Positions 1 through 39,107 of a stretch of DNA of 39,107 nucleotides are shown in pieces (within the stretch, counting starts at the first letter, position 1; every line of letters starts with the position of its first letter). The stretch comes from a virus, in the IMG/VR virus record IMGVR_UViG_3300045988_011822; one strand, written 5' to 3'. Below the pieces are notes generated by a model. That model did no database searches, was not told the origin of the DNA, and saw nothing but the letters and a program-made list of their open reading frames with translations. Both the position numbers and the translations under genes were made by a program.

Positions 1-55
1 CGTCGCAGGGTTGTACACAGACCAGCACGACAAACCGCACTTCGACCCGTCGCCA
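1..55. repeat. 55-nt exact terminal overlap, identical to 39053..39107 (circular-assembly overlap)
   Basis: cgtcgcagggttgtacacagaccagcacgacaaaccgcacttcgacccgtcgcca occurs at both window ends. An ORF reads in frame across the join. Confidence 0.95.
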
Positions 56-77
56 CGGCTGCCACCGAACAGGGCAA
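1..77 (-). repeat. DGR variable repeat (VR), 5' portion on the coding strand. The VR is 39025..39052 plus 1..77, 105 bp in total.
   Basis: 95/105 identity to 38682-38786. All 10 mismatches fall where the other copy has T on the plus strand, which is A on the coding strand. Confidence 0.9.
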
Positions 78-1179
78 CTGCAACGATCGTATTGTTGAAC
101 CATAACCCATCACATTCGTATGTGGTCTCACTTCCGGATGCAACGGTCGGGATTCTTCCGATGTCGGATGCCATTTCCATTCTTGAACAGTAGCCTCCGG
201 ATGTTCCGGACGGTGTCAGTCCTGTGTTTGTGTACCCCGCACCTGTTGAGTTGTACGGAGGAACTGCTTTCACATGATACACTCCGTTGATAAGCAGCAG
301 ACCTCTCAAACGTTTCCAGTAGTTCGCAAAGAAGTTCTCGCAGTAAAATACTTTGACTGCCTGTGTGGTCGATGTATAACCGAAAAACTGTCCTTTTCCG
401 TTGAGTGTTCCGGTCTGCAAGAAATTGTCGGACTGACTGTTTCCGTTTCCAAACTTGCCTTGTGAGTTGGTGCTGCATGTAATCATCGTACACATTTCAT
501 ACATGAGGTTGATTTCAGAAAATGACTGTTTATCCCATCTGTCACCGTTCTGCTTTGCTGCGGTCGTCTCCTGCTCGTCTGTCATGGACGCTGTCGGTGT
601 GAGACCGGAGAGTGAACGCATCCTGTTGTTGACAACCGAACCCTCGTACATCGGGAAATATGTCACAGGCAGGACATTTCCGTCTGCGTCGGTGTGTGCG
701 TATGCTTTGTATGTGTCATCGTACTGCTCCTCACAGAACACAACAAAATGATAATTGTTCTGTGTCCATCTCTTGACCCAAATCAGAGGAATCTCGGACA
801 TTGCATTTCCACCGTATGATGTTTTTGTGATGTCCGATGCTCCTCCGTTCAGCTTGAGAGCATGGTTTTCATGATTCAGTTCATAGTCAACCGTTCCGTC
901 AGTTCTTACCATGACCGGACGGTTTTTCTTTACGAACCAAATATCTCCCCAGTCTCCATAATCGAACCCGCCTCCTGCGAAATTCATTCCTGCGGGTGTC
1001 ATTCCAACCGCATCATAAAGATATTTGACACGGGTTGCCGGATTGCTGTCGAGGAGGTTGATTCTCATTCCGTATCTTTTCGGTTTTGCTTTTGCGTCCT
1101 CGATAATTTTCTTTGTGTTGGAAAGAATCTCCTGCGACGTGGATTCTTTCGCCATGAATATTCTGTCACCTGCTGCCAT
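1..1179 (-). CDS. DGR target protein (variable tail-fibre/receptor-binding protein), first 393 codons. The ORF continues across the circular junction to a stop at 38993 (412 aa in total).
   Basis: ATG at 1179 overlaps the TAA of the upstream gene (TAATG). I checked all plus-strand triplets in phase 1 from nt 1 to 1179 and found no tta/cta/tca. Translation runs MAAGDRIFMAKESTSQ...VFYCENFFANYWKRL...ALFGGSRGDGSKCGLSCWSVYNPATGVYTSIVASLSCKPPVAAA*. It is absent from the ORF track because it runs off the window edge. Confidence 0.85.
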   Translation of the reverse strand, partial: MAAGDRIFMAKESTSQEILSNTKKIIEDAKAKPKRYGMRINLLDSNPATRVKYLYDAVGMTPAGMNFAGGGFDYGDWGDIWFVKKNRPVMVRTDGTVDYELNHENHALKLNGGASDITKTSYGGNAMSEIPLIWVKRWTQNNYHFVVFCEEQYDDTYKAYAHTDADGNVLPVTYFPMYEGSVVNNRMRSLSGLTPTASMTDEQETTAAKQNGDRWDKQSFSEINLMYEMCTMITCSTNSQGKFGNGNSQSDNFLQTGTLNGKGQFFGYTSTTQAVKVFYCENFFANYWKRLRGLLLINGVYHVKAVPPYNSTGAGYTNTGLTPSGTSGGYCSRMEMASDIGRIPTVASGSETTYECDGLWFNNTIVAVALFGGSRGDGSKCGLSCWSVYNPAT

Positions 1180-1565
1180 TATTCACTTGCCTCCTTTGTG
1201 ATTTCCTCAAAATACAACGTACCGTTTGAGATACCCATTCGATACTTGATTTGTGTCGCATCGTCCTCCAGTTCGACAGTCGTTGCCAGTGCTTTCATTT
1301 CTGCAAGCAACTCCGTTCCCTTTTTGACCATGTCGTCATAGTACGTTTTTGCATCTTTGTCCATTCCGGTCTTGATTTCTCTGACCTCCTCGATGTCAAA
1401 TGCGACAGGGAGGCTCATGAACTCGGTCGAACCGTTACCGATTCGGATGATTCTGTGACCGCTTGTCGTGGTTTCGAGACCCAGTTCTCCATCATCGAGA
1501 ACCCTCTTGCTCTCCGTCCACTCTGCGGTCGTTCCCTTTTTCAGAGTGATTGTTGCTGTTGCCAT
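1179..1565 (-). CDS. Tail-fibre N-terminal domain protein (HylP/Mtd-N-like)
   Basis: ITLKKGTTAEWTESKRVLDDGELGLETTTSGHRIIRIGNGSTEFMSLP parallels the remembered phage hyaluronidase/Mtd N-terminal motif (..R.sa.eW......L..GE.GfEtDT...K.GDG...f..L.). Confidence 0.6.
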   Translation of the reverse strand: MATATITLKKGTTAEWTESKRVLDDGELGLETTTSGHRIIRIGNGSTEFMSLPVAFDIEEVREIKTGMDKDAKTYYDDMVKKGTELLAEMKALATTVELEDDATQIKYRMGISNGTLYFEEITKEASE

Positions 1566-19230: not shown

Positions 19231-19841
19231 TTTCCTGTTCCTCCCATAGTCAGCAGCCTCTCAAATAGCTGCTCATATAGTGCCTTGAATGTGTCACGCT
19301 CGGTCTGAACTTTGATGATGTCCTCTGACTGTCTGCTTGCATCAACTTTCCTGTTCTCCTCGACATACACTGCTGCATCCTGTTCAATTTCTGCGATTCT
19401 GTCATCACATTCCTGCTGTAACATCTCAATTTCCCTTTTTAGGCTGTCGATTTCCTCCTGCTGCCTCTGTATCGTCTCATTGTACTGCTTTGATGTCTTT
19501 CCTCCACCGCTCAACTGTAAGGAAATCATGAGAGCGATGTCGATGTTTTTCATTTCTTGCTCCGATACCTGCCCGATGTAATTATTCACACGGTCGGTCG
19601 ATACTGACGATACCTGTTCACACAATACTGTGGATAATCGTCCGGTACTGCGGACGGTCACATGTGTCGGGAGGTCTGTTTTCGGTTGCGTCGTCATATA
19701 CACAACCTCAATCACTCCGGAGTGCTTGTTGTTCTCGTCATTGCTGACTACAACTGCGGGTCTGTCCGCAAATTGTTCACTCCCGTTTGTCGCCCCCCCT
19801 CGTGCGATATAGAATATCTCTCCTCGTCTGATGTCATCCAT
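19227..19841 (-). CDS. MazF/EndoA (PemK)-family toxin domain fused to a ~90-aa C-terminal coiled coil
   Basis: RGEIFYIARGGATNGSEQFADRPAVVVSNDENNKHSGVIEVVYMTTQPKTDLPTHVTV...VLCEQVSSVSTDRV...SEQEMKNIDIALMISLQL aligns by eye with B. subtilis EndoA (RGDVYFADL..VGSEQGGVRPVLVIQND...LPTHVEI...LLEQIRTIDKQRL). Confidence 0.8.
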   Translation of the reverse strand: MDDIRRGEIFYIARGGATNGSEQFADRPAVVVSNDENNKHSGVIEVVYMTTQPKTDLPTHVTVRSTGRLSTVLCEQVSSVSTDRVNNYIGQVSEQEMKNIDIALMISLQLSGGGKTSKQYNETIQRQQEEIDSLKREIEMLQQECDDRIAEIEQDAAVYVEENRKVDASRQSEDIIKVQTERDTFKALYEQLFERLLTMGGTGN

Positions 19842-19868
19842 TGCCTTTTCCTCCTTATTTCACCGCCA

Positions 19869-21227
19869 TCATTCAGCATCCTCTTTCATGAGTGATGTTG
19901 CCATGATGCAATATCCGTCCTCAAGACCTGCAAACTCCTCAAGGATATATGTCACAAGCACTCTCACGGTGCGTCCTGTGTTCTTTCCGTCCTTGAACTC
20001 CATCATCTCAAGGATGTCGCCTTTTTTATAGTCTCTGTCATTCTTCCGGAGTTCAAATGTCTTTTCTCCGGATGCAACCTCCTCAAAAAATGTCGCTCCC
20101 AGTTTAATGTGATGCACTTTCTGACCGTTCTCCTGTGTGTCTGACGGGAGGTTGTTCATCTTCTCCTCCTCTGCCTGTTCACGGAGTTTCTTTTTTGTCT
20201 CACGGTCGATTGCATCCTGCTCCTCGTTATATCTCTGCTCCTCGGTCTTGTAAGCCTCTGCACGGTTCTTGTACTGGTCGCATGAGGTACATGTTCCGGT
20301 CTTTACGTTGCAAGTCTCGTATTCGGTGCAGGAATAGCAGATTGATGTGATTCCCTCCGGATGCGGTGTCTCATAATCGTCGCCCGCTTTCTTTTCCTCC
20401 GGAGGATTCATGCTGTTTTCTGATGACTGCTGCCCTGCTGTGTCTGAATCTGACACGGTGTCCTGCTGCCCTGCTGCATCCTGCTCCTGTTTCTGCGGTG
20501 ATTTCATGTCCTTAATTTCCGTATAGGACAATTCTCCGTTTTCCTTGTACTTTGCAAGTGCCTCCTGCTGCATCTCCGGAGACATCCCACTCAACTCATA
20601 CGCTGCGGAGAATGTGAGACGCTCGTTGTTGAGTTCCTCTCGAAACTCCGGAATCAAATTGTTGTTGACGCTCTCAATCTGTGCGATCTTGGTCTTTGAC
20701 ATCTTGAGCATTGAGGCGATGACATCACGGAGGCGACCGGACTGGAGGTCATATCCTTTGATTTTCTTTCCATCCGTTTTCATACGCTCAAGACACGCTT
20801 TGAGACGCTGTTCCTCCTCGATGACATCCTTGAGAGACTTTGTCCGGTATGCGTTTGCGATGATGATTTCCACCTGCTCCTCGTCCTCGTCCTGCGGTGT
20901 GGTCAGTTTGCAGGTCGCAATCTCAAAATCTTTATATCCCTGCTCGACAAGGTGCTTGAGTGCAAGCCACCGTCTCTCACCTGCGACGATTCTATATTCA
21001 CCCTGCTCATTCGGCTCAAATACAACCTCAAGATTCTGTTTGAGACCATACATGAGGATGTCTCCTGCCAGTTCCTCAATATCTGCCAAATCGTAGAAAT
21101 TGAGTTTGTTCCGGTACATCTTGAAAATTGAAATGTCCTTTGTCCGGAATCTCGCCCTCGGTGATTCGTCAACTCCTGCCTTACTGTTCTTGTTCAGTGC
21201 GTCCATGACGCTGAATCCTGTTGCCAT
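19869..21227 (-). CDS. ParB-like nuclease-domain protein fused to a C-terminal ASCH/DUF3850-like domain
   Basis: N-terminus ...IEELAGDILMYGLKQNLEVVFEPNEQGEYRIVAGERRWLAL (ParB/Srx fold). C-terminus HHIKLGATFFEEVASGEKTFELRKNDRDYKKGDIL (DUF3850-like). A Cys-rich segment lies in the middle. Confidence 0.7.
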   Translation of the reverse strand: MATGFSVMDALNKNSKAGVDESPRARFRTKDISIFKMYRNKLNFYDLADIEELAGDILMYGLKQNLEVVFEPNEQGEYRIVAGERRWLALKHLVEQGYKDFEIATCKLTTPQDEDEEQVEIIIANAYRTKSLKDVIEEEQRLKACLERMKTDGKKIKGYDLQSGRLRDVIASMLKMSKTKIAQIESVNNNLIPEFREELNNERLTFSAAYELSGMSPEMQQEALAKYKENGELSYTEIKDMKSPQKQEQDAAGQQDTVSDSDTAGQQSSENSMNPPEEKKAGDDYETPHPEGITSICYSCTEYETCNVKTGTCTSCDQYKNRAEAYKTEEQRYNEEQDAIDRETKKKLREQAEEEKMNNLPSDTQENGQKVHHIKLGATFFEEVASGEKTFELRKNDRDYKKGDILEMMEFKDGKNTGRTVRVLVTYILEEFAGLEDGYCIMATSLMKEDAE

Positions 21228-21492
21228 GTTCTTTCCTCCTGTTTTCTCCCGTCAGTGCGGTCACGATTTCTTTGTATTCCATTTCACACTCGAAAATCTG
21301 TGCGTCGAGTGCGTCCAATCTCTTGTATAACTGGTTTTCAATGCTTTTCGGTACTTTCTCGCCATTCCGCAGTAATATACCGATTATCTGATATTTACTC
21401 TTGCAGGTCAGTTCCGTCAAAATCTGAATCTGTTGCTTTTGATTCTCTGCTCTCCGGAATGACCCGCATATCTCTCTTTCGGTCACACGCAT
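21181..21492 (-). CDS. Hypothetical protein
   Basis: 103-aa ORF. Its 3' end overlaps the next gene by 47 nt. Confidence 0.45.
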   Translation of the reverse strand: MRVTEREICGSFRRAENQKQQIQILTELTCKSKYQIIGILLRNGEKVPKSIENQLYKRLDALDAQIFECEMEYKEIVTALTGENRRKEHGNRIQRHGRTEQEQ

Positions 21493-21500
21493 CCGCTCCC

Positions 21501-21902
21501 CTATTCTGTTAGTTTCTGCTTTTTGGTCTCTGTACGCTCGACGTTTATCTCGCCTTTGCTATTCTGTGATATAGATGCTTTGACCCCACCTCGGAGGTTC
21601 AGAGTGACCTTTGCCAGTCCTCCGGTGTATATCTCCTCAACTGCTGCCTTGAGAATGTTCACGATGCCCTCACTGCATCTCTTTTCCGGTGCTGCTGCCT
21701 CTCCGAACAATGCAGCGACGTTCTGCATCGCCTTTTCTTTCCTCTGTTTCTCTTTCTGATACTCAACCGCCTGTTCGCAGGTGCAGGACATTGTCGCCTG
21801 TTCCTCTGCCTGTGGCTGTGTCAATTTCTCCTCGCTGTCAATCTGCACCATCTGTCCGCAGAATCGACACGGTGCTGTGTTGATGATGTTTCCCATGTTC
21901 AA
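21501..21902 (-). CDS. Hypothetical protein
   Basis: 133-aa ORF in the operon. N-terminal CRFCGQ...CTCEQ. Confidence 0.5.
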   Translation of the reverse strand: MNMGNIINTAPCRFCGQMVQIDSEEKLTQPQAEEQATMSCTCEQAVEYQKEKQRKEKAMQNVAALFGEAAAPEKRCSEGIVNILKAAVEEIYTGGLAKVTLNLRGGVKASISQNSKGEINVERTETKKQKLTE

Positions 21903-21921
21903 TCCTCTCTTTCTGTCGCTC

Positions 21922-22896
21922 TCATGCGACCTCCTGCAAAATTATCTTTCTGAATATGCTCTCAAATATCGGAACTGCAATGCTGTTCCCTGCTTGGTCA
22001 TATAAAGCCTTGTAGTATTTCCCGTTTCTTTCTTGAACTGCTTTCGCCCTGTCAAAATCCTCGTCTGAATATCCCATCAATCTCCAACACTCACGCTCTG
22101 TCAAATACCGATAACGTCCATCTCCTCGGTCGATGACCTGTGCAGGTGTCCGGTCTTGCCTTGTTGTGATTGTATATGCACAATCTTTGATGACCGTCGC
22201 TCTCCGGATTCCTTTTTCTCCGATACATGCAAGGACGGACGGTTGTGTCACATCGTAGATGTCCGGAACGTCATCCTCAAGGAACTCTTGCAGGTTTCGC
22301 ATCGGTGTCCTTATGAGGTCATCGAACTCAAATTTTTCACCATTCAGAACAGAAACCGTGAACACTCTTTCTCTCGCCTGTGGCAATCCGAACTCTCTTG
22401 CATCTAAAACCGCATAATTATTCGTGTACCCCAGTTTTTCCATCTCGTCCATGTATCTGTCGAAATTCGGTCTCATGTACTTTGATTTCACATTCTTCAC
22501 GTTTTCCCATATCACATAACGAGGTCGCCATTCTCCCATATTCTCAATGATATGTATTGTCTCCCACATGAGAGAGGAACGTGTTCCGCTCCCCTCGTCT
22601 GAACCTTTCCCTCTGTTGATTCTTCCGTCTCCTGTCGCTTTCCCTTGATGTCCTGCGATGCTCATGTCTTGACAAGGCGAACCATGAATCAAAATATCCG
22701 GTTTCAGATTCCATCCGACGACCGTCTGTGTTTTATATTCTAATTCCTCACGGAACATCGAATTGTATGACCGGACTGCTTTTTCATTGATCTCCACATA
22801 GTCGATTGCTTTTGTTGGGATGTTCAAATTTCTCAAGGCACATCGAGGCGAACCAATTCCCCCGAATAATTCAAGAATCTGTATTGTATCGTTCAT
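21922..22896 (-). CDS. dcm: DNA (cytosine-5)-methyltransferase
   Basis: ELFGGIGS (motif I), GSPCQDMSIAG (motif IV), WENVKNV (motif VI), QARERVF (motif VIII) and GNSIAV (motif X). Confidence 0.9.
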   Translation of the reverse strand: MNDTIQILELFGGIGSPRCALRNLNIPTKAIDYVEINEKAVRSYNSMFREELEYKTQTVVGWNLKPDILIHGSPCQDMSIAGHQGKATGDGRINRGKGSDEGSGTRSSLMWETIHIIENMGEWRPRYVIWENVKNVKSKYMRPNFDRYMDEMEKLGYTNNYAVLDAREFGLPQARERVFTVSVLNGEKFEFDDLIRTPMRNLQEFLEDDVPDIYDVTQPSVLACIGEKGIRRATVIKDCAYTITTRQDRTPAQVIDRGDGRYRYLTERECWRLMGYSDEDFDRAKAVQERNGKYYKALYDQAGNSIAVPIFESIFRKIILQEVA

Positions 22897-23032
22897 GTCC
22901 TGCTGCCTCCTGTTCCTTTATCATTAAATCCGGACATTCACGACAGTCTTGACCGTTTTCCTCGCACTGTTCCTGTTCGTGTTCCGTCACATCCTCCATG
23001 TCTTTTCCGTACCATCTGCAAAAACCGCTCAT
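22871..23032 (-). CDS. Possible small acidic Cys-containing protein (53 aa, below the track cutoff)
   Basis: My translation is MSGFCRWYGKDMEDVTEHEQEQCEENGQDCRECPDLMIKEQEAAGHERYNTDS. RBS GAGAGGAG. It overlaps the methyltransferase start. Confidence 0.35.
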   Translation of the reverse strand: MSGFCRWYGKDMEDVTEHEQEQCEENGQDCRECPDLMIKEQEAAGHERYNTDS

Positions 23033-23047
23033 GTTCAAATCTCCTCT

Positions 23048-23836
23048 CTAATCAAAATCAACGAATTGTTCCGCTTTGAATCGGTCTCCCATATCCATGA
23101 AATAACCGTATAAAAACTCTTTCTGTTGCTTTGTCAGATTTTTCATGTTTGTCACTATATATCCGGTATATCCGGATGGATTGTGAATCAAGCAATATCC
23201 CTTTACCTCTGATAGAAAATCTCTCATGAGATGGTTAATTTCATTGCCTCTATTTTCTTTCACCCAGTTCCAATATTCCTCCGTGAACCCTTTTTCCTCA
23301 CAGATTTGTTCTGCTGATTCCTCATGAGTTCCGAACGGTGATTCAGTGAAAACTCCTGTCGGAGACAACCACCCGAACTCTTTTTCCTCCTTGTCCTGCT
23401 GCCCTGCTGCGTCCTGCTCCTGCTGCATCTGTGGCATTATTCCATTGTTGAAATTTTCAAGATGCTTTGAAAACTTTTCCATGTTCATCTCACGCTCAAT
23501 GATTTCCTCGTATTTCAGAGGTTTTCCCTCTTTCCCGTCCTTGAGCATGACCATCCGGCACGTTCCCCATTCCATCTCACTGAATCCCAAATCGTAGCAC
23601 TCCATCACATAAAACAATCCCGTTTTCAAATCCGGATTCATGCGAATCTCGACCATGTCAATGAAATTTTTATTGTCCAGTGCATCCCATACAATGTGAA
23701 AGTAATATGCAAAACCTTTTTCAAACGATTTGCACTTTCCCGAACCGTCAAGTGTTATGCAGGTGTCGCATCCTCCATTAGTGTGATGTTTGCATGAGCT
23801 GTTGTTGCATGTGATTTTTCTCTTTCCCACGCTCAC
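23048..23836 (-). CDS. Hypothetical protein translationally coupled to parA (candidate partition adaptor or centromere-binding partner)
   Basis: 262 aa. N-terminal Cys cluster CNNSSCKHHTNGGCDTCITLDGSGKC. A 4-nt overlap with the parA stop. Confidence 0.55.
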   Translation of the reverse strand: MSVGKRKITCNNSSCKHHTNGGCDTCITLDGSGKCKSFEKGFAYYFHIVWDALDNKNFIDMVEIRMNPDLKTGLFYVMECYDLGFSEMEWGTCRMVMLKDGKEGKPLKYEEIIEREMNMEKFSKHLENFNNGIMPQMQQEQDAAGQQDKEEKEFGWLSPTGVFTESPFGTHEESAEQICEEKGFTEEYWNWVKENRGNEINHLMRDFLSEVKGYCLIHNPSGYTGYIVTNMKNLTKQQKEFLYGYFMDMGDRFKAEQFVDFD

Positions 23837-24612
23837 CCCTCCATTTCCTTGAGTAACTCATGAACCACATTGCGATAGTCCTGTGACACGATGCAGTTCT
23901 TTGAAAACTGTGGGAGGACTGCCATTCTCATGGATGCCTTTTCCGCTACAATCGACCGACGAATCGGTGTGACGAACATGTCAAATCCGGAACTGGTTTT
24001 CATCCACTCCTCGAAATCCAGTGATGTCTTGTTTTTCTGTCTCATGGTCACAAGACCTTTGATTCGGAGTTCCGGATTGATTTCCCGCAGGTCGTCAACC
24101 TGCTCCTGCAAATTGTGAATCGCCTCGTTTTCATATCCTCCGACCTTTACTGGTGCAATGACGAGTTCTGCTGCCAGTAGAATGTTGATGACCACCATAT
24201 CAAGCAGACGACCGCAATCACAAATGCAATAGTCGTATGCCTCGGATATTTCCTCCAGTGCATCCCGCAGCCTCGTGACTTGATTTGCCTCCTGCTTGAG
24301 CAGCAGTTTCATGTCTGTCTGCATGAGATACCCGTTTGCAGGAATGATGTCAATGTGACTGTACTGTGTGGGTCTTATCAAGTCCGTTGTCCGGTATGAC
24401 CCGCCCACACTCACATGACGCTCAAGCAGTTCACTCATTCCTGTTCCCTCCGGCTCGTATGCCTCGAATGTTTTGGATGTATCGCCCTGCGGGTCTCCGT
24501 CGAGAATGAGAACACGTTTCTCCTGCTCCTCTCCCAACATGTAGGCGATTGCATCCGATGTCGTTGTCTTTCCGATTCCACCTTTTGGTGACATAACTGC
24601 AATAATTCTCAT
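23833..24612 (-). CDS. parA: ParA/Soj-family partition ATPase
   Basis: Deviant Walker A motif MSPKGGIGKTTT, then LILDGDPQGD. Confidence 0.85.
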   Translation of the reverse strand: MRIIAVMSPKGGIGKTTTSDAIAYMLGEEQEKRVLILDGDPQGDTSKTFEAYEPEGTGMSELLERHVSVGGSYRTTDLIRPTQYSHIDIIPANGYLMQTDMKLLLKQEANQVTRLRDALEEISEAYDYCICDCGRLLDMVVINILLAAELVIAPVKVGGYENEAIHNLQEQVDDLREINPELRIKGLVTMRQKNKTSLDFEEWMKTSSGFDMFVTPIRRSIVAEKASMRMAVLPQFSKNCIVSQDYRNVVHELLKEMEG

Positions 24613-24645
24613 TTTTTGTTCCTCCTGTTATCCTCTTGTTACCTG

Positions 24646-24786
24646 TTACATGAAACCTCTGTCGTCCGGCTGTCTCCATCCGCAGCGGTGCAGGTGCATC
24701 CCCTCGCCCACCTTGTAGAGTGTATATGTGAACCCTGCTCCCAGTGCTATGACGACGACTGCTGCCACAATGATGATTTTCCTCAT
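24646..24786 (-). CDS. Small membrane peptide (46 aa, below the track cutoff)
   Basis: My translation is MRKIIIVAAVVVIALGAGFTYTLYKVGEGMHLHRCGWRQPDDRGFM. RBS GGGGAGGTGAGG. Confidence 0.5.
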   Translation of the reverse strand: MRKIIIVAAVVVIALGAGFTYTLYKVGEGMHLHRCGWRQPDDRGFM

Positions 24787-24801
24787 GTCCTCACCTCCCC
24801 G

Positions 24802-25086
24802 CTATATCGTGATTGTGTGGTATATACACAACTGCAAATCTCTGAAAGAATAGTCCGGTGTTTCCTCCGGTTTCATCGGTGCAATGAGACCCCGTTCCTT
24901 GTATTTCCTGTGAGTGATCTCCGGAATTGCTCGGAATCTCTTGACCTCTGCATCTCCTATCTGTGCGACGATGTCCTTGTCAACCTCCATGTTTGCAAAA
25001 TACTGGTTGTATATCTCCTCACCGTCCTTGATGACCCGAACCCTGTCCGGACTTTCAAGCAACGTCATAATATCCTTGACCGTCAT
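24802..25086 (-). CDS. Hypothetical protein (94 aa)
   Basis: Start at MTVKDIMTLLE, preceded by GGAGGTG. The longer track ORF overlaps the VRR-NUC gene. Confidence 0.5.
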   Translation of the reverse strand: MTVKDIMTLLESPDRVRVIKDGEEIYNQYFANMEVDKDIVAQIGDAEVKRFRAIPEITHRKYKERGLIAPMKPEETPDYSFRDLQLCIYHTITI

Positions 25087-25100
25087 CCTGCTGCACCTCC

Positions 25101-25616
25101 TCATTTCTTTCTCGGTTTGCTCTCTTTGATTTCCCCATTCTTGAGGATGCTGTTGTTCGGTATATCCATGACCATCTTTTCGATTGCGTCCTGCTTTCCA
25201 CTCGCTCGCCCCATCACAATCATGACATCGTTCATCCTCCAACTATTGAGAGATAAATATTTCTTGATGACCTCGATTGCCTCCTCTGCGGAGTAGCAGG
25301 TCGCCACGAAATGACCTGCCTCTGCCATGTCTTTGAGGAACTCTTTCTGTGATACCTGCTGCCTGTTGTCTCCGAACTTCATCTCGATGTATAGTCCGCA
25401 ATAAATTCCTTTCGGATATGGCAAGCAAAGGTCGCTCACTCCCGCCTTGACACCCATCTGTTTGAGTTTCACCGCCTCCTGCTTGTTCCTGCTGCCTCCG
25501 TTCGGTACATGGTGCAGCCATTTCAATTCCGGATAGCGGTTCATGTTCCAGTTCGCCCATGACACGACATTGATTTGCTCCGTGTCCTCACTTCTCATTG
25601 CATATCTCATGTTCAT
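25101..25616 (-). CDS. VRR-NUC domain nuclease
   Basis: ...KQMGVKAGVSDLCLPYPKGIYCGLYIEMKFGDNRQQVSQKEFLKDMAEAGHFVATCYSAEEA matches the remembered VRR-NUC pattern (G.. G.PDL...E.K...ls..Q). Confidence 0.7.
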   Translation of the reverse strand: MNMRYAMRSEDTEQINVVSWANWNMNRYPELKWLHHVPNGGSRNKQEAVKLKQMGVKAGVSDLCLPYPKGIYCGLYIEMKFGDNRQQVSQKEFLKDMAEAGHFVATCYSAEEAIEVIKKYLSLNSWRMNDVMIVMGRASGKQDAIEKMVMDIPNNSILKNGEIKESKPRKK

Positions 25617-25713
25617 TCTCTTTCACCTCTTTCCTGCTGCCTATCTCCTGCTTGCACATGTCATAATATTCGCAGAACAGACACACATGTCTGCAATCCT
25701 TGACCCTCAACAT
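25588..25713 (-). CDS. Possible 41-aa Cys-rich peptide (below the track cutoff)
   Basis: My translation is MLRVKDCRHVCLFCEYYDMCKQEIGSRKEVKENEHEICNEK. It overlaps the next gene start by 29 nt. Confidence 0.25.
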   Translation of the reverse strand: MLRVKDCRHVCLFCEYYDMCKQEIGSRKEVKENEHEICNEK

Positions 25714-25726
25714 GTGCAGAATCCTC

Positions 25727-26518
25727 TCAATCACCTGCATCTTGCTCCAGTTCCTCCTCGATTTCTTTCATCCGGCTCATGATGGTCTGATTGTACTCAT
25801 ACACATAGATTCCGTTTTTCCATAGATGTTGTTTTGCTCCCTGCTCCCCGTAGTTATACGCTGCAAGTGCATCTTGAATCGTTCCGTATCTCTCAATCAG
25901 TTCCGACAGGTAATCAGTCCCGACGAGTACGTTCTGATATGGGTTCGTGAGGTCTGTGACGTTCAGACGCTCCATCCTGTCTCTGTGGCACTCCTCATAT
26001 ATCTGCATGTACCCGATAGAATGACCATCATCACCAACCTTGTCGAATTTATATCCGGATTCTTTCTCAATCAAAGCGACCACAAGGTCATATCTGACCC
26101 CGTACTGCTTGCAGACGCAATATGTATATACCTGCATCTTTTCCGGAAAATAGCCACCTGTCCGACTGTATTCCTCCGGTATCTCATAGAGCACGAATCC
26201 ATCCTCCTCGCCTCCCCAGTCTGCCGACATGGTGTCAAATACTGCATACTTGTCCGGTTCTGTGTCCTGCTCCTGCTGCCATGTTCGCACCTGCTCAAGC
26301 ATTGCATTTTGTCCGGATGTCTCTCTTTTCTCGTCGATTCTCTGCATCCGTGCATTGAACTCCTGCGACTGCTGCTCATACTCCTCAAATTCCTTGTCAT
26401 CTCGCATGACAGAGCGTGTCAGACCTATGCTCACAGCGATCGCCAGTAATACCATCACCGCAATATATGTCAGTTCCCGTCTCCTCCTGCTCATTCTTCT
26501 CTTTCTTTTTGCTTTCAT
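25727..26518 (-). CDS. Membrane-anchored lytic transglycosylase (SLT domain)
   Basis: N-terminal basic stretch plus TM segment (LTYIAVMVLLAIAVSIGL). The SLT catalytic region is LIEKESGYKFDKVGDDGHSIGYMQI...AAYNYG. Confidence 0.7.
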   Translation of the reverse strand: MKAKRKRRMSRRRRELTYIAVMVLLAIAVSIGLTRSVMRDDKEFEEYEQQSQEFNARMQRIDEKRETSGQNAMLEQVRTWQQEQDTEPDKYAVFDTMSADWGGEEDGFVLYEIPEEYSRTGGYFPEKMQVYTYCVCKQYGVRYDLVVALIEKESGYKFDKVGDDGHSIGYMQIYEECHRDRMERLNVTDLTNPYQNVLVGTDYLSELIERYGTIQDALAAYNYGEQGAKQHLWKNGIYVYEYNQTIMSRMKEIEEELEQDAGD

Positions 26519-27435
26519 TGCTGCCTCCGTTTCCTCATTCTCGCCCGTATGTAGAACATTGAGTTGAAATCGTTGTAATAGATTCCCGCATCCGTAAAAT
26601 CAAAATCCGGATACCATTTCAACATCTGCTCACGAACCTGCTCATGTCCTTTTCTCATGGTCTCGACGTATGTTCCGATTTTCTTATATCCTCCGGCTTT
26701 TGCTGTCGGTCTCTTTGAATGAACCACCTTGATGTCGGGGTCTCTCAATCCCTGTGAGGAGTTCCACCGTTTCTCCGATTTCACCCTGTTCTTTTCCTCG
26801 ACGATATACTTTGCCATTCCTGTCAAACCGTTCTCGTCCTTTTGCAGCCTCCGAACCTCGTTCCTGCTGCTCTGTTTCCAACATCCCTCAACCACATCCA
26901 TGTCCATGTCGCCATCCATGACAATGTGATGATGCCACCGGATTTCCTCTGTCGGATTGTAGGCGGTCACATAGACATATCTTGCGTTCGGGAGACCCCT
27001 TTTCTTTCTCTGATAATTCACCCGTCGGATGAATTTCTGCACGTTCTTGATTGCTGCGTCGATGTCTCCGTCCGGAGGGAGATGCTCATTGTCGTATGTA
27101 AACGTGAGCCACAAATCTCTGTCCGTGAAATTCTCATTGATAAGACGCTCCACATATTTCCTTGCGTTCTTGTCGTTCAGATTCCTTTGAGCCTTGTCAT
27201 TGTCCTTTTTGATACTCCGACCCTCCGGAGGTACTTCATCCATTTTCTTGAACTGTGGATATATCTCAACCTCGAACTGGTCTCCTGCTCGTATCTCCTT
27301 GAGTGCATATACAACCTTTTTCCCATGCTTGAACATCTGCTCAACAAAAAACTCATTCATGTCCTCAAGGCTCTTGTTGTATGCTGCCTCATAGTCATAC
27401 GGGATGAACGTCATCCCTTTCTTTCTCTTTGCCAT
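26515..27435 (-). CDS. Rolling-circle replication initiator (HUH endonuclease superfamily)
   Basis: LWLTFTYD (motif 1), RWHHHIVMDG (HUH) and MAKYIVEEK (Y-x-x-K). Start placed at MAKRKKGMTF, preceded by AGGAGG. The track start at GTG 27534 is less likely. Confidence 0.65.
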   Translation of the reverse strand: MAKRKKGMTFIPYDYEAAYNKSLEDMNEFFVEQMFKHGKKVVYALKEIRAGDQFEVEIYPQFKKMDEVPPEGRSIKKDNDKAQRNLNDKNARKYVERLINENFTDRDLWLTFTYDNEHLPPDGDIDAAIKNVQKFIRRVNYQRKKRGLPNARYVYVTAYNPTEEIRWHHHIVMDGDMDMDVVEGCWKQSSRNEVRRLQKDENGLTGMAKYIVEEKNRVKSEKRWNSSQGLRDPDIKVVHSKRPTAKAGGYKKIGTYVETMRKGHEQVREQMLKWYPDFDFTDAGIYYNDFNSMFYIRARMRKRRQQ

Positions 27436-27558
27436 TCTGACACCGTTCCTCCTGCTGCCCTTATATATACTTTTCAACGACTTGTTACTATCCATCACAA
27501 GGTCGTCAAAAGGGTCTGAAACCCTTTGAATCACGGGGTTTTTCCCGCTTTTTCATGC

Positions 27559-27587
27559 TTGCAATATGGTGTCAGATTTGCTATAAT
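27559..27587 (+). promoter_or_regulatory. Near-consensus promoter on the plus strand, pointing away from all nearby genes
   Basis: TTGCAAtatggtgtcagatttgcTATAAT (17-nt spacer). Confidence 0.5.
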
Positions 27588-27593
27588 ATTTTT

Positions 27594-27660
27594 AGGTTTT
27601 AAGCGTCTGACACAGACTGCTAAACGGGAGACCGCTGCAACGGTCTCCTTTCTTTTTGCT
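27594..27660 (+). ncRNA. Candidate ~65-nt small RNA (promoter to terminator unit)
   Basis: Lies between the TTGCAA-17-TATAAT promoter (27559-27587) and the terminator hairpin (27627-27648 plus T-run). An internal hairpin GTCTG-aca-CAGAC is present. There is no ORF. Confidence 0.4.
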
Positions 27661-27667
27661 CTTTTTT
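27627..27667. terminator. Strong stem-loop with a T-run on the plus strand
   Basis: GGAGACCG-ctgcaa-CGGTCTCC followed by tttctttttgctctttttt, with an A-rich tract on the other side. Confidence 0.6.
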
Positions 27668-27690
27668 CTCATGCTCTGCATATTCATTTT

Positions 27691-28617
27691 TTAGGTGTAT
27701 TCCTCGTAAATCGCCCCCTCCATATCGAACGCAAGTTGACCGTCCATGTTGTCATCTTCCATCCACCACTTAAACACTTTCAGACCTGTTGACCACTTAT
27801 TACAATTCTTTAAGCCTCTTTTTTCTCGTTCAATCAGCATCTTGTCAAATGCTCTGATATATGCCTCTTTGTATTTTGGATAACGTTCAAATTCGCTCCA
27901 TCTCTTATCTCCTGCCATCGGGCAGCCGATACAACCAACCCTGCAATTTCCGCATCCGTATAGTGGATTTAGACAAATTGCATTTTTCTTTATATACCAC
28001 CACAGAAATTCATCATCCCAGTCTATCAGCGGATTTATAATGACCTTGTGCGTTCTGAAACAGTTTTCAACGGTTCTCCTCGTTTCTGCATTGTCGAGGT
28101 TCATCACAATCACCCCGCCCTTGTTCGTTGACAGAAAATTGTCGTCTTTTTCTGCCTCTTTTAATAAATCTTTTTTAGGTTTTGGGATTGTAATTGCACC
28201 TTGATTGTTTTTTCGATTATTGCTTTCTGCTTTTCTTACACCTGTGACGATTCTCTCCCCAAACTCTCCAGTGTTCTCTTTAAGGTCTGCACAGCAATAT
28301 CGCATCAAGCGTGTCGGCGGTGTGACATGCCTCACGATCAACTGCCACATGCTCTCTTTTGGATAATGAATTTCATACGGAATCCCCATCTGTTCAAACT
28401 TTCGTTTTTCTTCCCGAACAAAATAGACCGTTTCCGGTGCATCCACTGTTGTGTGATTATGACGAACTCTGAATTGCAACCCATATTTTTCTTTCGCTTG
28501 CAACGCTATGTGCTTTAGAACACTGCTGTCTTTTCCTCCGCTGTCGCAGATAATGCACTCACTTCTTTCACACATCATGTGCAATATTTCTATTGCATTT
28601 TTCTCCAGTCGTTCCAT
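27691..28617 (-). CDS. PAPS reductase-family (PP-loop ATPase) protein with a C-terminal Cys cluster
   Basis: SGGKDS PP-loop motif (IICDSGGKDSSV). C-terminal CGNCRVGCIGC. Start placed at MERLEKNAIE, preceded by GGAGGG. The upstream 48 codons of the track ORF overlap the 53-aa ORF. Confidence 0.8.
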   Translation of the reverse strand: MERLEKNAIEILHMMCERSECIICDSGGKDSSVLKHIALQAKEKYGLQFRVRHNHTTVDAPETVYFVREEKRKFEQMGIPYEIHYPKESMWQLIVRHVTPPTRLMRYCCADLKENTGEFGERIVTGVRKAESNNRKNNQGAITIPKPKKDLLKEAEKDDNFLSTNKGGVIVMNLDNAETRRTVENCFRTHKVIINPLIDWDDEFLWWYIKKNAICLNPLYGCGNCRVGCIGCPMAGDKRWSEFERYPKYKEAYIRAFDKMLIEREKRGLKNCNKWSTGLKVFKWWMEDDNMDGQLAFDMEGAIYEEYT

Positions 28618-28626
28618 CTCGCCCTC

Positions 28627-28788
28627 CTCATGCTGTTGCAACCGCTGTCTTTCCCTGCTGCTCCCACTTCTGACGTTCCTCCTGTTTTCCTGCCATATAT
28701 CCGGCAATATAGGACTTGTCAACGTCATCCATCTGTGTGAACCGCTCTGCGATGTTCTCAATCATTTCTTTTCTTTCATCCTTTGACA
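28627..28788 (-). CDS. Small hypothetical protein (53 aa, below the ORF-track cutoff)
   Basis: My translation is MSKDERKEMIENIAERFTQMDDVDKSYIAGYMAGKQEERQKWEQQGKTAVATA. It ends 7 nt before the PAPS-reductase ATG. Confidence 0.45.
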
Positions 28789-31940: not shown

Positions 31941-33032
31941 ATGAAACTACCGAACGGGTTCGGGTCGGTCTATAAATTATCCGGAAACCGACGAAATCCC
32001 TATGTCGCAAAAAAGACAAAAGGGTGGGAAATTGACCCTATAACCGGAAAATCAAAACAATTATATATAACCGTCGGATATTACCCGACACGCAAAGAGG
32101 CTCTCACTGCATTAGCGGAATATAACAAAGACCCCTTTGATTTGCACCATGCAACTATTACTTTCGAGGAAGTGTATGAGAATTGGTCAGAAATCCATTT
32201 TGAAAAAATCAAGGACACGAATGGTTACAAGGCTGCTTTTAACACATCGAAACCCCTGTGGAAAATGAGATTTGTTGACATCAAACTGGATCACCTGCAA
32301 GGTGTCGTCGATAGCTCCGGCAAAAATACTCCCACACTTAAAACCTTGAAAATCCTGTGGGGTCTCATGTATGACTATGCTGTCATTCACGAGATTGTGT
32401 CTCAAGATAAAAGAGACATGGTCAGATACGTCGATATAGGCAAGGCAGGAAATCCGAACGCATACAACCGGAAACCTTTTTCAAAGAAAGAGATTTCTAT
32501 TCTGTGGAAATGTAAGGATTCAAACATATATGTGACCGTCATTCTTATTATGATTTATTCCGGTGTCCGTATCGGGGAACTCCTCGACCTTGAGAAAAAG
32601 GACATCCATCTTGATGAACGATGGTTCTATGTGAAAGAATCCAAAACAGAGGCAGGAATCAGAGAAGTTCCCATTGCTGAAAAGATTGTACCATTCTTTG
32701 AATACTGGATGAACCGGAAATGTGACCATCTGATTTGTACACCCGACGACGAACCTTTTCAGTACCGGAATTATTATGATTCTTACTGGATTCCTCTGAT
32801 GCTTGAGTTCGGTTTCGGGAAATTCGTCATTGATGAAACGAAAAAAGAACCTGTCTATGACGGACACCGCCCGCATGATACAAGACACACCTGCATCTCT
32901 CTCCTCACCGAAAAGGAAGTTGACGAGAGATTCATCAAGAAAATTGTCGGGCATAAAGGACAGGGTGTGACCGAAAACGTCTACACCCACATTGAACTCC
33001 CGACCAAACTTGAGGCGATCAATTTGATTTGA
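31941..33032 (+). CDS. int: Tyrosine recombinase / phage integrase
   Basis: 363 aa. The C-terminal catalytic region is ...GVRIGELLDL..., RPHDTRHTCISLL, IVGHKGQGVTENVYTH (R..H-x-x-R..H..Y pattern). Confidence 0.9.
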   Translation: MKLPNGFGSVYKLSGNRRNPYVAKKTKGWEIDPITGKSKQLYITVGYYPTRKEALTALAEYNKDPFDLHHATITFEEVYENWSEIHFEKIKDTNGYKAAFNTSKPLWKMRFVDIKLDHLQGVVDSSGKNTPTLKTLKILWGLMYDYAVIHEIVSQDKRDMVRYVDIGKAGNPNAYNRKPFSKKEISILWKCKDSNIYVTVILIMIYSGVRIGELLDLEKKDIHLDERWFYVKESKTEAGIREVPIAEKIVPFFEYWMNRKCDHLICTPDDEPFQYRNYYDSYWIPLMLEFGFGKFVIDETKKEPVYDGHRPHDTRHTCISLLTEKEVDERFIKKIVGHKGQGVTENVYTHIELPTKLEAINLI

Positions 33033-37084: not shown

Positions 37085-37399
37085 TTAAATCAACCCCTCC
37101 TCAATCAACTGTTGTGTGTATTCGTCGATGACTGCATCTTTCTGAAACTGTGTCACGGATTCAACGATTCCTGTTGTGTTGGATGCAACAACCTCCTGCA
37201 TGAGCGTCAATCTGTCATATTCCTCCCGTGACATTTCACGCTCCTCTCGCTGCCATCCGGTGATTTTCTTTCCGTCTGCATCCTCTTTCGTTGCTTTCTT
37301 GATATTGCGTCTCTGATATACCGTTGTCGGTGACGCTGTTGTGTCGAACTCCTCCGGCTGTTCTGCCTCCGTTCCGAACACTTCTCTCCATTCTTTCAT
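37085..37399 (-). CDS. Hypothetical protein, possibly XkdW-like by position. Its 5' 164 nt overlap the RT 3' end out of frame.
   Basis: 104-aa ORF MKEWREVFGTEAEQ...QQLIEEGLI sits directly upstream of an XkdX-like gene. An alternative start, ATG 37234, lies just after the RT stop. Confidence 0.5.
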   Translation of the reverse strand: MKEWREVFGTEAEQPEEFDTTASPTTVYQRRNIKKATKEDADGKKITGWQREEREMSREEYDRLTLMQEVVASNTTGIVESVTQFQKDAVIDEYTQQLIEEGLI

Positions 37400-38534
37400 G
37401 TTTTTCTCGCTCCTTTCGCTTTGAATGTTTGCTAACTATTTTCTTTAATTTCTTAACATTCACATAAGGCTTGACCCTTTGCAGGTACATGTCGTATGTG
37501 TCTGTATTGCTCAAGTAACCCATGTATGACAGAATTGCGGTTGCATCGTACCATGTGATTTTCTCTTTCTTTGCGACACGGTTGACTTTCCGTGTGCAAC
37601 TCAACATGATGCTTTCCCGCAGAATCGTCTTGTCGTGATAGAACTGGAATCCCATGAAATCGAGTGGTCTCCCTTTTCTCTTTCCGGTCTTTTTCTCTGT
37701 GTAATCGAACCGGAACACCTGCCAGTTTCCTTTCATCTGCAAGTTGAACTTTTCTCTCAAGAATCTCTCAATCTCCTGCTGCATCCTGTGGAGTTCCTTT
37801 TTGTTCTTTCCGAACACCACCATATCATCCATATACCGGATATAATGCACCGCTTTCAACTGTTCTTTGATGAAATGGTCGAGAGGCTGCAACATGAAAT
37901 TTGACAACCACTGCGATGTGTAAAACCCTAAAGGCAACCCGACCTCGCTCCCGTCAATTATCAGTGCGAGGATGTACAACATTCTCTCGTCTCTGATTTT
38001 CTTCTTGAGCCACACTTTCAAGACATCATGGTCAACACTCTCGAAAAAGTGTCGAATATCCATCTTGAGAACATATTTGCAGTTCTTTTTGTCTCGCTGA
38101 ATCCACCTCTCGATGTACTTTTTCCCATAATGAGCACCCCTGTTCGGTACGCTCCCACACGAGAACTCATACATCCCTTTCATGAAAATGTCATAACACG
38201 CAGAGACGACAATGTGGTGAATCACCTGCTCATAATTGTATCGAGGTTTCTCAATCATTCTCACTTTTCTGCTCGTTCCCTCGTTGATGCAGACTTTCCC
38301 GTGTCTTGATGGTTTCCATGCCTTTTCCGGATGCGGTACGTCGTACCCCTCCGGTGCAGTGTTCTCAAGTTGCTCGACGACGTTCTTGACATGTCTCTGA
38401 ATGTTGGTCGGCTCTAATATCACCGCAACGTCCGGACGCTCTGTCTTGCCCTTTGCTGCTTTATGAAATTTTTGCTCAACATTGCTATGTTCTAACATAG
38501 GCTTGTACAGGTTATTGACGGATTTATTTCCCAT
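37236..38534 (-). CDS. DGR reverse transcriptase
   Basis: Motifs seen: VLKMDIRHFFESVDH, GLPLGFYTSQWLSNF (the [ILV]GxxxSQ motif typical of DGR RTs), IRYMDDMVVFG (YxDD) and LDFMGFQF. It lies about 135 nt downstream of the TR. I prefer the ATG at 38534, which is preceded by GAGGTGA; the track's GTG at 38546 sits inside that RBS. Confidence 0.9.
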   Translation of the reverse strand: MGNKSVNNLYKPMLEHSNVEQKFHKAAKGKTERPDVAVILEPTNIQRHVKNVVEQLENTAPEGYDVPHPEKAWKPSRHGKVCINEGTSRKVRMIEKPRYNYEQVIHHIVVSACYDIFMKGMYEFSCGSVPNRGAHYGKKYIERWIQRDKKNCKYVLKMDIRHFFESVDHDVLKVWLKKKIRDERMLYILALIIDGSEVGLPLGFYTSQWLSNFMLQPLDHFIKEQLKAVHYIRYMDDMVVFGKNKKELHRMQQEIERFLREKFNLQMKGNWQVFRFDYTEKKTGKRKGRPLDFMGFQFYHDKTILRESIMLSCTRKVNRVAKKEKITWYDATAILSYMGYLSNTDTYDMYLQRVKPYVNVKKLKKIVSKHSKRKEREKHERMERSVRNGGRTAGGVRHNSVTDNGISETQYQESNERGCRRKENHRMAARGA

Positions 38535-38681
38535 CTTTCTTATCACCTCAAGGTCTTTCTGATATTCTTACTCGACCCTGCCTGCATCGGTATTATTTCC
38601 ACTGGTTAGGTGTATTTCAACACCCTGCGGTGTAGGAAAAAGGTGTGCTTTTGGTTAAATGCTCCATAATTTGATAAGATT

Positions 38682-38786
38682 GGCTCGCCACGATGTTCGT
38701 GTTCACGTTCGTCGCAGGGTTGTTCACATTCCAGTACGACAAACCGCACTTCGACCCGTTGCCACGGTTGCCACCGAACAGGGCAA
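38682..38786 (-). repeat. DGR template repeat (TR)
   Basis: A 105-bp non-coding copy of the VR with 23 adenines on the coding strand, 10 of them substituted in the VR (6 A->G, 3 A->T, 1 A->C). The notional translation is Asn(AAC)-rich: ALFGGNRGNGSKCGLSYWNVNNPATNVNTNIVAS. Confidence 0.9.
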
Positions 38787-38841
38787 GGACGCACACCGAT
38801 TCCCCTGTCATGTCAAGGTCATCTTTTTTGTCATGTCGGAG

Positions 38842-38871
38842 ATTCTATCACAATTTTTTCTGTTTGTGTCG
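38842..38871 (-). promoter_or_regulatory. Candidate promoter for the TR-RT transcript
   Basis: Minus strand reads cgacac-18 nt-TGaTAGAAT (extended -10), about 55 nt upstream of the TR. The -35 is weak. Confidence 0.25.
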
Positions 38872-38923
38872 GATGTGCCTCCCGTTTCCATCATCGTGGA
38901 AAATCCTTGTCATACCGGACACC

Positions 38924-38977
38924 TCGGAGGGTAAACCCTCCGAACCTCCCTTTTTATTGCGGGGGAGTATCTCCCCC
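38924..38977 (-). other. Two GC-rich stem-loops just downstream of the target stop and VR
   Basis: 38961-38977 is GGGGGAG-tat-CTCCCCC. 38924-38943 is tCGGAGGG-taaa-CCCTCCGa. Neither is followed by a U-tract on the minus strand. Confidence 0.6.
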
Positions 38978-38992
38978 GTTCCCCCTCGCTGC

Positions 38993-39107
38993 TTACGCAG
39001 CAGCAACAGGCGGTTTACAAGAAAGGCTCGCCACGATGCTCGTGTACACGCCCGTCGCAGGGTTGTACACAGACCAGCACGACAAACCGCACTTCGACCC
39101 GTCGCCA
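38993..39107 (-). CDS. C-terminal end of the same DGR target ORF (39053..39107 duplicates 1..55; stop TAA at 38993-38995)
   Basis: The frame continues from nt 1 into 39052 as ...GVYTSIVASLSCKPPVAAA then TAA. This segment contains the 3' part of the VR. Confidence 0.85.
   Translation of the reverse strand, partial: GDGSKCGLSCWSVYNPATGVYTSIVASLSCKPPVAAA
39025..39107 (-). repeat. DGR variable repeat (VR), 3' portion plus the duplicated overlap
   Basis: Same alignment as above. The GC-rich 3' end CATCGTGGCGAGCC (coding strand) is shared with the TR and is IMH-like. Confidence 0.9.
39053..39107. repeat. Second copy of the 55-nt terminal overlap (duplicate of 1..55)
   Basis: Exact identity to nt 1-55. 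Confidence 0.95.

Follow-up and report, generated by a model that had tools for sequence, protein, structure and literature searches.

The 39,107-nucleotide viral stretch IMGVR_UViG_3300045988_011822 from IMG/VR (the window hereafter, that is, the whole stretch of DNA that was analysed) carries two near-identical repeats, one at the 3' end of a tail gene and the other between this gene and a reverse transcriptase (RT) gene. The question raised by this locus is whether repeats, tail gene and RT form a diversity-generating retroelement (DGR), and whether such an element is active and can do without the accessory protein Avd. The original prediction had recognised in the pair a template repeat (TR) and a variable repeat (VR), the hallmark of mutagenic retrohoming in a phage receptor-binding gene. 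This reading gains support from the adenine-only mismatches, from RT motifs of DGR type, from a target protein model resembling TaqVP and Mtd, and from the pattern of diversity in the population of related loci. We favour, with a probability of about 0.95, the conclusion that the element is an active, accessory-free DGR of the 'target-TR-RT' type in a temperate gut phage.

Repeats that differ at template adenines

The contig of the window is circular: its first 55 nt recur at the other end (1-55 = 39053-39107), which gives a true length of 39,052 bp, so that reading a repeat across the junction is legitimate. A repeat search finds a single VR in the genome. The computed ungapped alignment of the TR (38682-38786) to the VR (39025-39052 plus 1-77) has 95/105 identical positions and reproduces exactly the one originally proposed. 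All 10 mismatches lie where the plus strand of the TR has T, which is A on the minus, coding strand; tabulated by TR base, 10/10 are at adenines, of which the TR has 23, and none at another base. The substitutions from TR to VR are 6 A>G, 3 A>T and 1 A>C, and translation of both repeats in frame (ALFGGNRGNGSKCGLSYWNVNNPATNVNTNIVAS for the TR, ALFGGSRGDGSKCGLSCWSVYNPATGVYTSIVAS for the VR) shows 8 recoded residues, all as predicted. Were 10 mismatches placed at random over 105 positions, the probability that all fall on the 23 adenines would be C(23,10)/C(105,10) = 4e-8. All DGR components that could be checked are there, and in the canonical order along the minus strand: target gene with the VR at its 3' end, GC-rich initiation of mutagenic homing (IMH) site and hairpin, TR with its own flank (IMH*), structured spacer RNA, and RT (Table 1).

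The RT was used to scan IMG/VR and GTDB genomes, which returned 157 related loci. The comparison of repeats is based on 35 TR/VR pairs, the window plus 34 IMG/VR loci, holding 34 distinct VRs. Polymorphism confined to TR-adenine positions had been expected in sequencing reads; looked for here on related contigs rather than reads, it is what was found, with 374 of the 379 TR-to-VR differences at TR adenines (187 A>G, 99 A>T, 88 A>C). The TR is identical to that of the window in 25 loci, whose RTs are about 99% identical and whose 25 VRs are all different, at pairwise distances of 7-19 nt. Differences from the TR in this subset are at A in 282/286 cases and no VR contains a stop codon. Nucleotide diversity (pi) in a MAFFT alignment of 23 near-identical copies is 0.127 for the VR, 0.000 for the TR, 0.002-0.014 for the immediate flanks and 0.020 for the rest, making the VR the most diverse stretch of the region and the TR an invariant one. 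The 90%-identity protein cluster of the target contains 18,398 distinct sequences. Such a pattern of VR and TR diversity, together with the cluster size, is the prediction of repeated, recent mutagenic homing, which ordinary selection or recombination cannot give.

The same alignments refine the homing boundary. An identical GC-rich, IMH-like 3' end had been noted in the two copies: the shared GC block stands, but its undiversified core is shorter. The A of CATCGTGG (A in C-A-TCGTGG) is T, G or C in relatives and therefore the core that is never diversified is TCGTGGCGAGCC, not CATCGTGGCGAGCC. The A at position 101, inside GCGAGCC, is changed in 1/25 VRs only. Judged from these sequences, mutagenic transfer ends within TCGTGGCGAGCC. 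The 8 nt past the GC block read TTTCTTGT in the VR and AATCTTAT in the TR, and this holds for essentially all VRs and all TRs of the 35 loci: VRs are nearly all TTTCTTG(T/C), two being TCTCTTGC, and TRs nearly all AATCTTAT, two being TATCTTAT. These are fixed differences between IMH and IMH*, not products of mutagenesis, and the suggestion that the 8 nt may themselves be mutagenised, leaving the boundary uncertain, has to be abandoned.

Target recognition by the DGR of phage BPP-1 requires a hairpin or cruciform, and the GCTGC-GTAA-GCAGC hairpin downstream of the GC block recalls it in position and form. Its core is kept in loci with 79-99% RT identity, including those at 79-84%, and the DNA fold of the segment that holds it (38880-39040) has z = -4.6. 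By analogy, this is a candidate target-recognition hairpin or cruciform. The repeats are 238 nt apart; from the target stop codon to the TR there are 206 nt, non-coding and with three GC-rich hairpins. No T-tract terminator follows the two hairpins at 38924-38978, and a match of the VR-TR gap to the Rfam family 'Clostridiales-2' (24 bits versus 58.6) was taken as chance.

Some loci show other arrangements of the repeats. The window's own ends fall within the VR, and contigs L002, L003, L005, L015, L017, L021, L022 and others end 150-400 nt upstream of the RT, at TR/VR, which suggests that VR heterogeneity within samples breaks assembly graphs. Four loci (L011:3760, L049:3760, L019:1277, L042:3753) have one chimeric repeat, with the target gene upstream, IMH*, spacer and RT downstream, and a few changes at adenine sites at its 5' end; they lack the 343-nt interval between VR and TR, either by a deletion through VR x TR recombination or by assembler collapse. 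In a Dorea ammoniilytica prophage (L086:3760-3864, corresponding to window positions 38682-38786) the TR copy, recognised by its IMH* flank, has 9 substitutions against the otherwise invariant TR, all at adenine sites. The VR of the same prophage has six of them, those in the 3' half, but lacks the three in the 5' half. The pattern resembles what off-target homing or gene conversion into the TR and then partial homing on the 3' side would leave, but an assembly chimera could also give it.

Target protein, reverse transcriptase and spacer RNA

The target protein matches phrog_5302 'tail protein' (E 4e-133). The 412-aa protein has no Pfam family and a PDB sequence search with it gave nothing, so that the fold search alone was informative. 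An AlphaFold (AF2) model built on 59 homologues, with a mean predicted local distance difference test score (pLDDT) of 94.5, has its best PDB matches in two DGR variable proteins, TaqVP (5vf4, E 1e-11) and BPP-1 Mtd (1yu0-1yu4, E ~5e-4), followed by far weaker ones to FGE, EgtB and TvpA (E 0.6-2.6). Searched against the viral structure library BFVD, the model finds 'tail collar fiber' proteins from many gut phages, crAss-like ones among them, at template modelling (TM) scores up to 0.91. The variable residues are predicted to sit in the C-type-lectin-like tip. Directly upstream lies a 128-aa open reading frame (ORF) with an Mtd_N domain, a name that refers to the major tropism determinant (Mtd) of BPP-1; the ORF probably encodes the attachment module of the fibre. 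Its stop codon overlaps the target ATG (TAATG), an arrangement suggesting translational coupling of the two. The possibility that this ORF and the target are halves of a gene fused in 528-aa homologues was rejected for the homologue P0101, to which BLASTP of the 128-aa ORF found no similarity.

The closest solved relative of the window RT is the 328-aa RT of 8ub7 (E 1e-23), which we take from its 328-aa sequence and motifs to be the Bordetella phage bRT; a literature search for the code 8UB7 gave nothing. RTs of group II introns and retrons score worse (2.5e-15 and weaker). The motif LGFYTSQ aligns to IGSLTSQ of 8ub7 and YMDD to YMDD, fitting the xGxxxSQ and YxDD of DGRs. The assignment to the DGR class relies on motifs, nearest structure and family scores. 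A retron, group II intron or defence RT (Drt, Abi) was discarded on scores far below every curated NCBIfam cut-off (group II 88/300 bits, Drt3a 82/200, retron 66/235), and an Rfam scan of the window found no retron or group II intron RNA family. RT ORFs of relatives end at 406-477 aa (436 aa in the window), with no conserved stop. The tail of the window ORF (37236-37440, minus strand) overlaps, out of frame, a conserved acidic 104-aa gene (37085-37399, minus strand; phrog_20201) that precedes XkdX. A functional C-terminal extension was set aside on these grounds, the ends being variable and the tail an alternative frame of the conserved downstream gene; the read-through tail is probably incidental.

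Between TR and RT lies a spacer of 147 nt that contains a structured RNA matching Rfam RT-4 (72.5 bits, E 1e-12; the gathering score is 73.5 bits), with a weaker match also to RT-18. In 7/16 distant relatives this position is occupied by an RT-18 RNA whose end directly precedes the RT start, and the P1 and P2 stems of RT-4 covary in relatives. RT-10, in the TR-RT interval of BPP-1, was the only RT motif placed in a DGR by Weinberg et al. (PMC5737381), who speculated that other RT motifs serve other DGRs. The locus points to such a role for RT-4, in a DGR spacer. The spacer also contributes one strand to a long-range helix whose other strand is the 5' flank of the TR, and which thereby brackets the TR. 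It has compensatory changes in relatives, GG/CC being replaced by AA/TT or AG/CT (GC<->AU). A six-helix structure, partly derived from the same 15 related sequences on whose alignment it was scored, reaches 97.2% pairing, and in 8 of its pairs both partners have changed; of 500 shuffles none attains this, and pairing in slid controls is 30-53%. The helices are revealed by comparative analysis only and not by single-sequence folding, where the whole TR-spacer RNA shows no excess stability over shuffles (z = -0.5).

Just upstream of the bracketing helix (38806-38836, minus strand) the motif GACATGACA occurs twice (CCGACATGACAAAAAAGATGACCTTGACATGACAGGGG). The second copy is inside a TTGACA hexamer resembling a -35 box and is conserved in most relatives; a -10 box was not found. 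Elsewhere, the promoter and terminator scan found nothing useful after the target gene. A 72-nt part of the spacer (38607-38678, minus strand), comprising its TR-proximal part and the beginning of the RT-4 motif, shares 79% identity with unannotated DNA of Butyrivibrio phages Arawn, Idris and Closwp03. The match hints that these cultured phages carry related DGR RNAs.

A Pfam scan of 50 ORFs covering the genome gave no match to the Avd families PF05635 and PF22296, and no credible ORF lies in the VR-TR gap. The acidic 104-aa gene after the RT was considered as an Avd and dismissed: it is not Avd-like and belongs to no Pfam or NCBIfam family. In 56 distant relatives, the ORFs within the 1.7 kb that precede the RT yield only 1 bAvd-like and 2 HRDC matches, the bAvd match serving as positive control of the scan. 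Avd being nearly absent from these relatives, the RT clade is Avd-less and the absence is a lineage trait, not decay. An accessory-free TR-RT layout is already known and not new in kind: 29% of DGRs have the accessory-free Architecture A, for which Avd-independent homing was proposed (Wu et al. 2018, PMC5758913).

Table 1. Features of the window; the retroelement and its target first, then other genes of the phage.
Feature	Position	Strand	Remarks
TR (template repeat)	38682..38786	-	105 nt, 23 adenines, all at codon position 1 or 2; 100% identical in 25 related loci; pi 0.000
VR, 5' part	1..77	-	coding-strand order of full VR: 77->1, then 39052->39025; pi 0.127 versus 0.02 elsewhere
VR, 3' part	39025..39052	-	ends in GC-rich block TCGTGGCGAGCC (39025-39036), essentially never diversified
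IMH-like VR flank TTTCTTGTAAA	39014..39024	-	constant in nearly all related VRs; unlike TR flank
IMH*-like TR flank AATCTTATCAA	38671..38681	-	constant in related TRs; unlike IMH
Hairpin, conserved core GCTGC-GTAA-GCAGC	38987..39005	-	~20 nt downstream of GC block, spans stop codon
Two GC-rich hairpins between target gene and TR	38924..38978	-	GGGGGAG-ATA-CTCCCCC (38960-38978), CGGAGGG-TTTA-CCCTCCG (38924-38943)
Long-range helix, 5' strand GGGGAATCGGTGTGC	38791..38805	-	just upstream of TR; pairs with 38634-38648
Long-range helix, 3' strand GCACACCTTTTTCCT	38634..38648	-	within spacer
Structured spacer RNA, matching Rfam RT-4 (RF03025)	38538..38634	-	full-length match 1-118, directly 5' of RT; 3' end includes RT ribosome-binding site GAGGTGA
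DGR-type RT gene	37236..38534	-	ATG at 38534; conserved RT ends near 37440; RVT_1 E 2e-17; phrog_1423 E 1e-98
Target gene, 5' part	1..1179	-	412-aa ORF, starts at 1179, crosses junction, stops at 38993; tail-fibre-like variable protein
Target gene, 3' end	38993..39107	-	stop TAA at 38995-38993; 39053-39107 duplicate 1-55 (assembly overlap)
128-aa ORF	1179..1565	-	Mtd_N domain PF18454, E 6e-6, 26.6 bits versus cut-off 26.3; phrog_38006; directly upstream of target
MazF toxin	19227-19841	-	
ParB_N/ASCH protein	19869-21227	-	
C5 DNA methylase	21922-22896	-	
ParA-type ATPase	23833-24612	-	
VRR-NUC	25101-25616	-	
SLT transglycosylase	25727-26518	-	
Rep ORF2/G2P	26515-27534	-	
PAPS-reductase-like protein	27691-28761	-	
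Integrase	31941-33032	+	

Proposed mechanism and rival explanations

The adenine-specific pattern in the genome and in the lineage, the intact DGR-type RT, the target fold, the covarying RNA helices and the fixed IMH/IMH* difference are directly supported, and the following model is built around them. An RNA spanning the TR and the 147-nt spacer would be transcribed and would fold so that the helix between the TR 5' flank and the spacer brackets the TR, followed by the RT-4-class structured element. The phage RT would then copy the TR to cDNA, faithfully except opposite adenines, where any nucleotide may be inserted. This cDNA would replace the VR at the 3' end of the tail-fibre-like gene, guided by the IMH (TCGTGGCGAGCC plus TTTCTTGT) and the downstream hairpin, while the TR would be protected by its differing flank IMH* (AATCTTAT). 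Up to 14 codons of the C-type-lectin-like tip could be recoded in this way: eight AAC/AAT plus AAG, TAC, two ACG, ATC and AGC. The genetic code allows ~3e13 peptides at these 14 codons, as calculated, and a change of receptor binding and host range is the presumed outcome. Analogy with BPP-1 supplies the remaining points: cis-priming from the spacer, what the hairpin does, the effect on receptor binding and the action of an RT that lacks Avd.

Several points weigh against an active element of this kind. The evidence for activity comes from comparing related contigs rather than reads; variation within one population and present activity of the window's own copy are presumed from it. The RT-4 match is 1 bit below the gathering score, and the covariation comes from few and related sequences that in part gave the structure. 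A scan for a sigma-70-like promoter upstream of the TR and for a terminator found none. A priming nucleotide and a template:primer duplex, looked for by eye in the spacer by analogy with A56 of the BPP-1 Sp, gave no convincing pairing. In BPP-1, the sole biochemically studied DGR, bRT is inactive without Avd (bioRxiv 10.1101/2023.10.23.563531); there is none here, and therefore the mechanism would have to differ from that of BPP-1 in this respect.

One rival view is that the repeats are a fossil, recording past homing by an element that is now inactive in this genome or in the whole lineage. The sample being known from contigs rather than reads and the absence of an Avd gene would fit it, and the L086 TR, which lost 9 adenines, shows that such elements can decay. 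However, the RT ORF is intact with its catalytic YMDD and the lack of Avd characterises the whole RT clade. One identical TR in 25 loci next to 25 VRs that are 7-19 nt apart, within flanks of pi 0.002-0.014, requires many recent independent homing events. We hold the fossil to be very improbable and retain the active DGR.

There is next to nothing left for an assembly artefact, in which mis-joined reads of a mixed population would have created both the end repeat and the VR/TR similarity. It is true that the contig ends inside the VR, that some related contigs are VR/TR chimeras lacking the 343-nt interval and that many break at TR/VR; yet the two copies stand at the same spacing in more than 30 independent assemblies, four isolate genomes among them, the 55-nt overlap is a normal signature of circularisation, and the ORF is continuous over the junction. 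An ordinary duplicated gene fragment, with the TR as a pseudogene copy of the gene 3' end, the VR changed by positive selection or recombination and an unrelated RT nearby, can point to phage-fibre receptor-binding tips that are often hypervariable without DGRs and to the weak RT matches to Drt3a, group II and retron models, but it is already refuted by the mismatch spectrum, for selection and recombination can neither confine 374/379 differences to A sites nor keep a non-coding copy invariant; moreover, the RT matches to other classes are far below curated cut-offs with 8ub7 as the nearest solved relative, the TR adenines avoid codon position 3, and known DGR variable proteins have the same fold as the target.

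No targeted protein-diversification system known is more extreme than the DGR, and with DGRs as common as they are in gut phages, another one is unsurprising. What the active DGR of the window adds is evidence of activity from natural variation, 25 copies having one template and 25 different VRs. Being Avd-less, it could serve as a model of Avd-independent homing; it links the orphan Rfam motifs RT-4/RT-18 to a DGR spacer and has a covarying TR-bracketing helix in the absence of Avd. A wider proposal, which we regard as rather unlikely when all its parts are taken together, is that the lineage offers a tractable, abundant and active case of Avd-independent mutagenic retrohoming, that the RT-4/RT-18 spacer RNA and the TR-bracketing helix, possibly with the longer N-terminus of the RT, do the scaffolding work of Avd, and that diversification of the fibre tip then lets one prophage, with the same RT and TR in all four species and a different VR in each, lysogenise four Lachnospiraceae genera.

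The phage, its hosts and known systems

Farther upstream of the target are genes for a Prophage_tail protein, Dit and the tape measure, and the RT is followed by the conserved acidic 104-aa gene, XkdX, putative holins and an endolysin. Otherwise the gene content is that of a temperate siphovirus-like phage, with integrase, Cro/CI-type repressors, terminase, portal, Clp protease, capsid, SSB and MazF; ParA/ParB-like proteins, a Rep protein and a C5 methylase are also encoded. The region 19227-28761 (minus strand) carries plasmid-like and defence-like cargo alongside the integrase. Prophages with a 98-99% identical RT are found in isolate genomes of Anaerosacchariphilus hominis (L079), Blautia luti (L080), Bariatricus sp. 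(L082) and D. ammoniilytica (L086). The hosts belong to four different genera of Lachnospiraceae and each prophage has its own VR; the identity of L079 and L086 with the window is about 99% along 9.1 kb. The carrier is a temperate phage of human-gut Lachnospiraceae. The GenBank phage collection holds no close DNA relative, the best match being 68% identity over the RT only. Since isolates of Blautia, Dorea, Bariatricus and Anaerosacchariphilus that carry the prophage are in culture, experiments on host range and homing are feasible.

The DGR of BPP-1 (mtd-avd-TR-brt), the prototype, is like that of the window in residing on a phage and in having one neighbouring target, which encodes a tail-fibre protein whose variable tip is C-type-lectin-like. 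In both, the gene has the VR at its 3' end, with a GC-rich IMH and then a hairpin behind it, 23 adenines lie in the TR, most of them in AAC codons, the RT carries the motifs xGxxxSQ and YMDD, and an Mtd_N domain goes with the target. The helix between TR 5' flank and spacer brackets the TR in the same topology as the avd:Sp 'cPRT Stop' duplex seen by cryo-electron microscopy (bioRxiv 10.1101/2023.10.23.563531). In contrast to BPP-1, the window element has no avd and its VR-TR gap no credible ORF; its spacer matches Rfam RT-4/RT-18, whereas that of BPP-1 is RT-10; its Mtd_N domain is on the separate 128-aa ORF; its host is a Gram-positive gut anaerobe; and its RT is only distantly similar to bRT (E 1e-23), with a longer N-terminus.

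The layout resembles Architecture A1 (TR-RT) of Wu et al. (2018, PMC5758913), with which it shares the target-TR-RT order, the lack of Avd, HRDC, MSL and CH1, one adjacent target and the association with phages. Assignment to the avd-less Lineage 3 of these authors would be conjectural, and their Lineage 3A was reported in Bacteroides and relatives, whereas the host group of the window phage is Lachnospiraceae.

For the target protein, the Thermus aquaticus TaqVP (5vf4) is the best structural fit found by Foldseek for the 412-aa model as a whole (E 1e-11, probability 1.0, ~390 aligned columns). The two differ in sequence (12-13% identity, TM ~0.45), and TaqVP is a bacterial protein, not one of a phage tail.

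DGR prophages of gut Bacillota and Bacteroides, namely the Hankyphage (PMC6199706) and Hodor-associated prophages (PMC12934698), resemble the window phage in being temperate, in placing the DGR between the tail and lysis modules and in having a C-type-lectin-like tail target. Unlike the window element, they encode Avd upstream of the RT. Cross-taxon spread of DGR-bearing gut prophages was reported for such Avd-containing phages (PMC12934698), and the occurrence of near-identical prophages in distantly related hosts is a further trait that the phage of the window shares with them.

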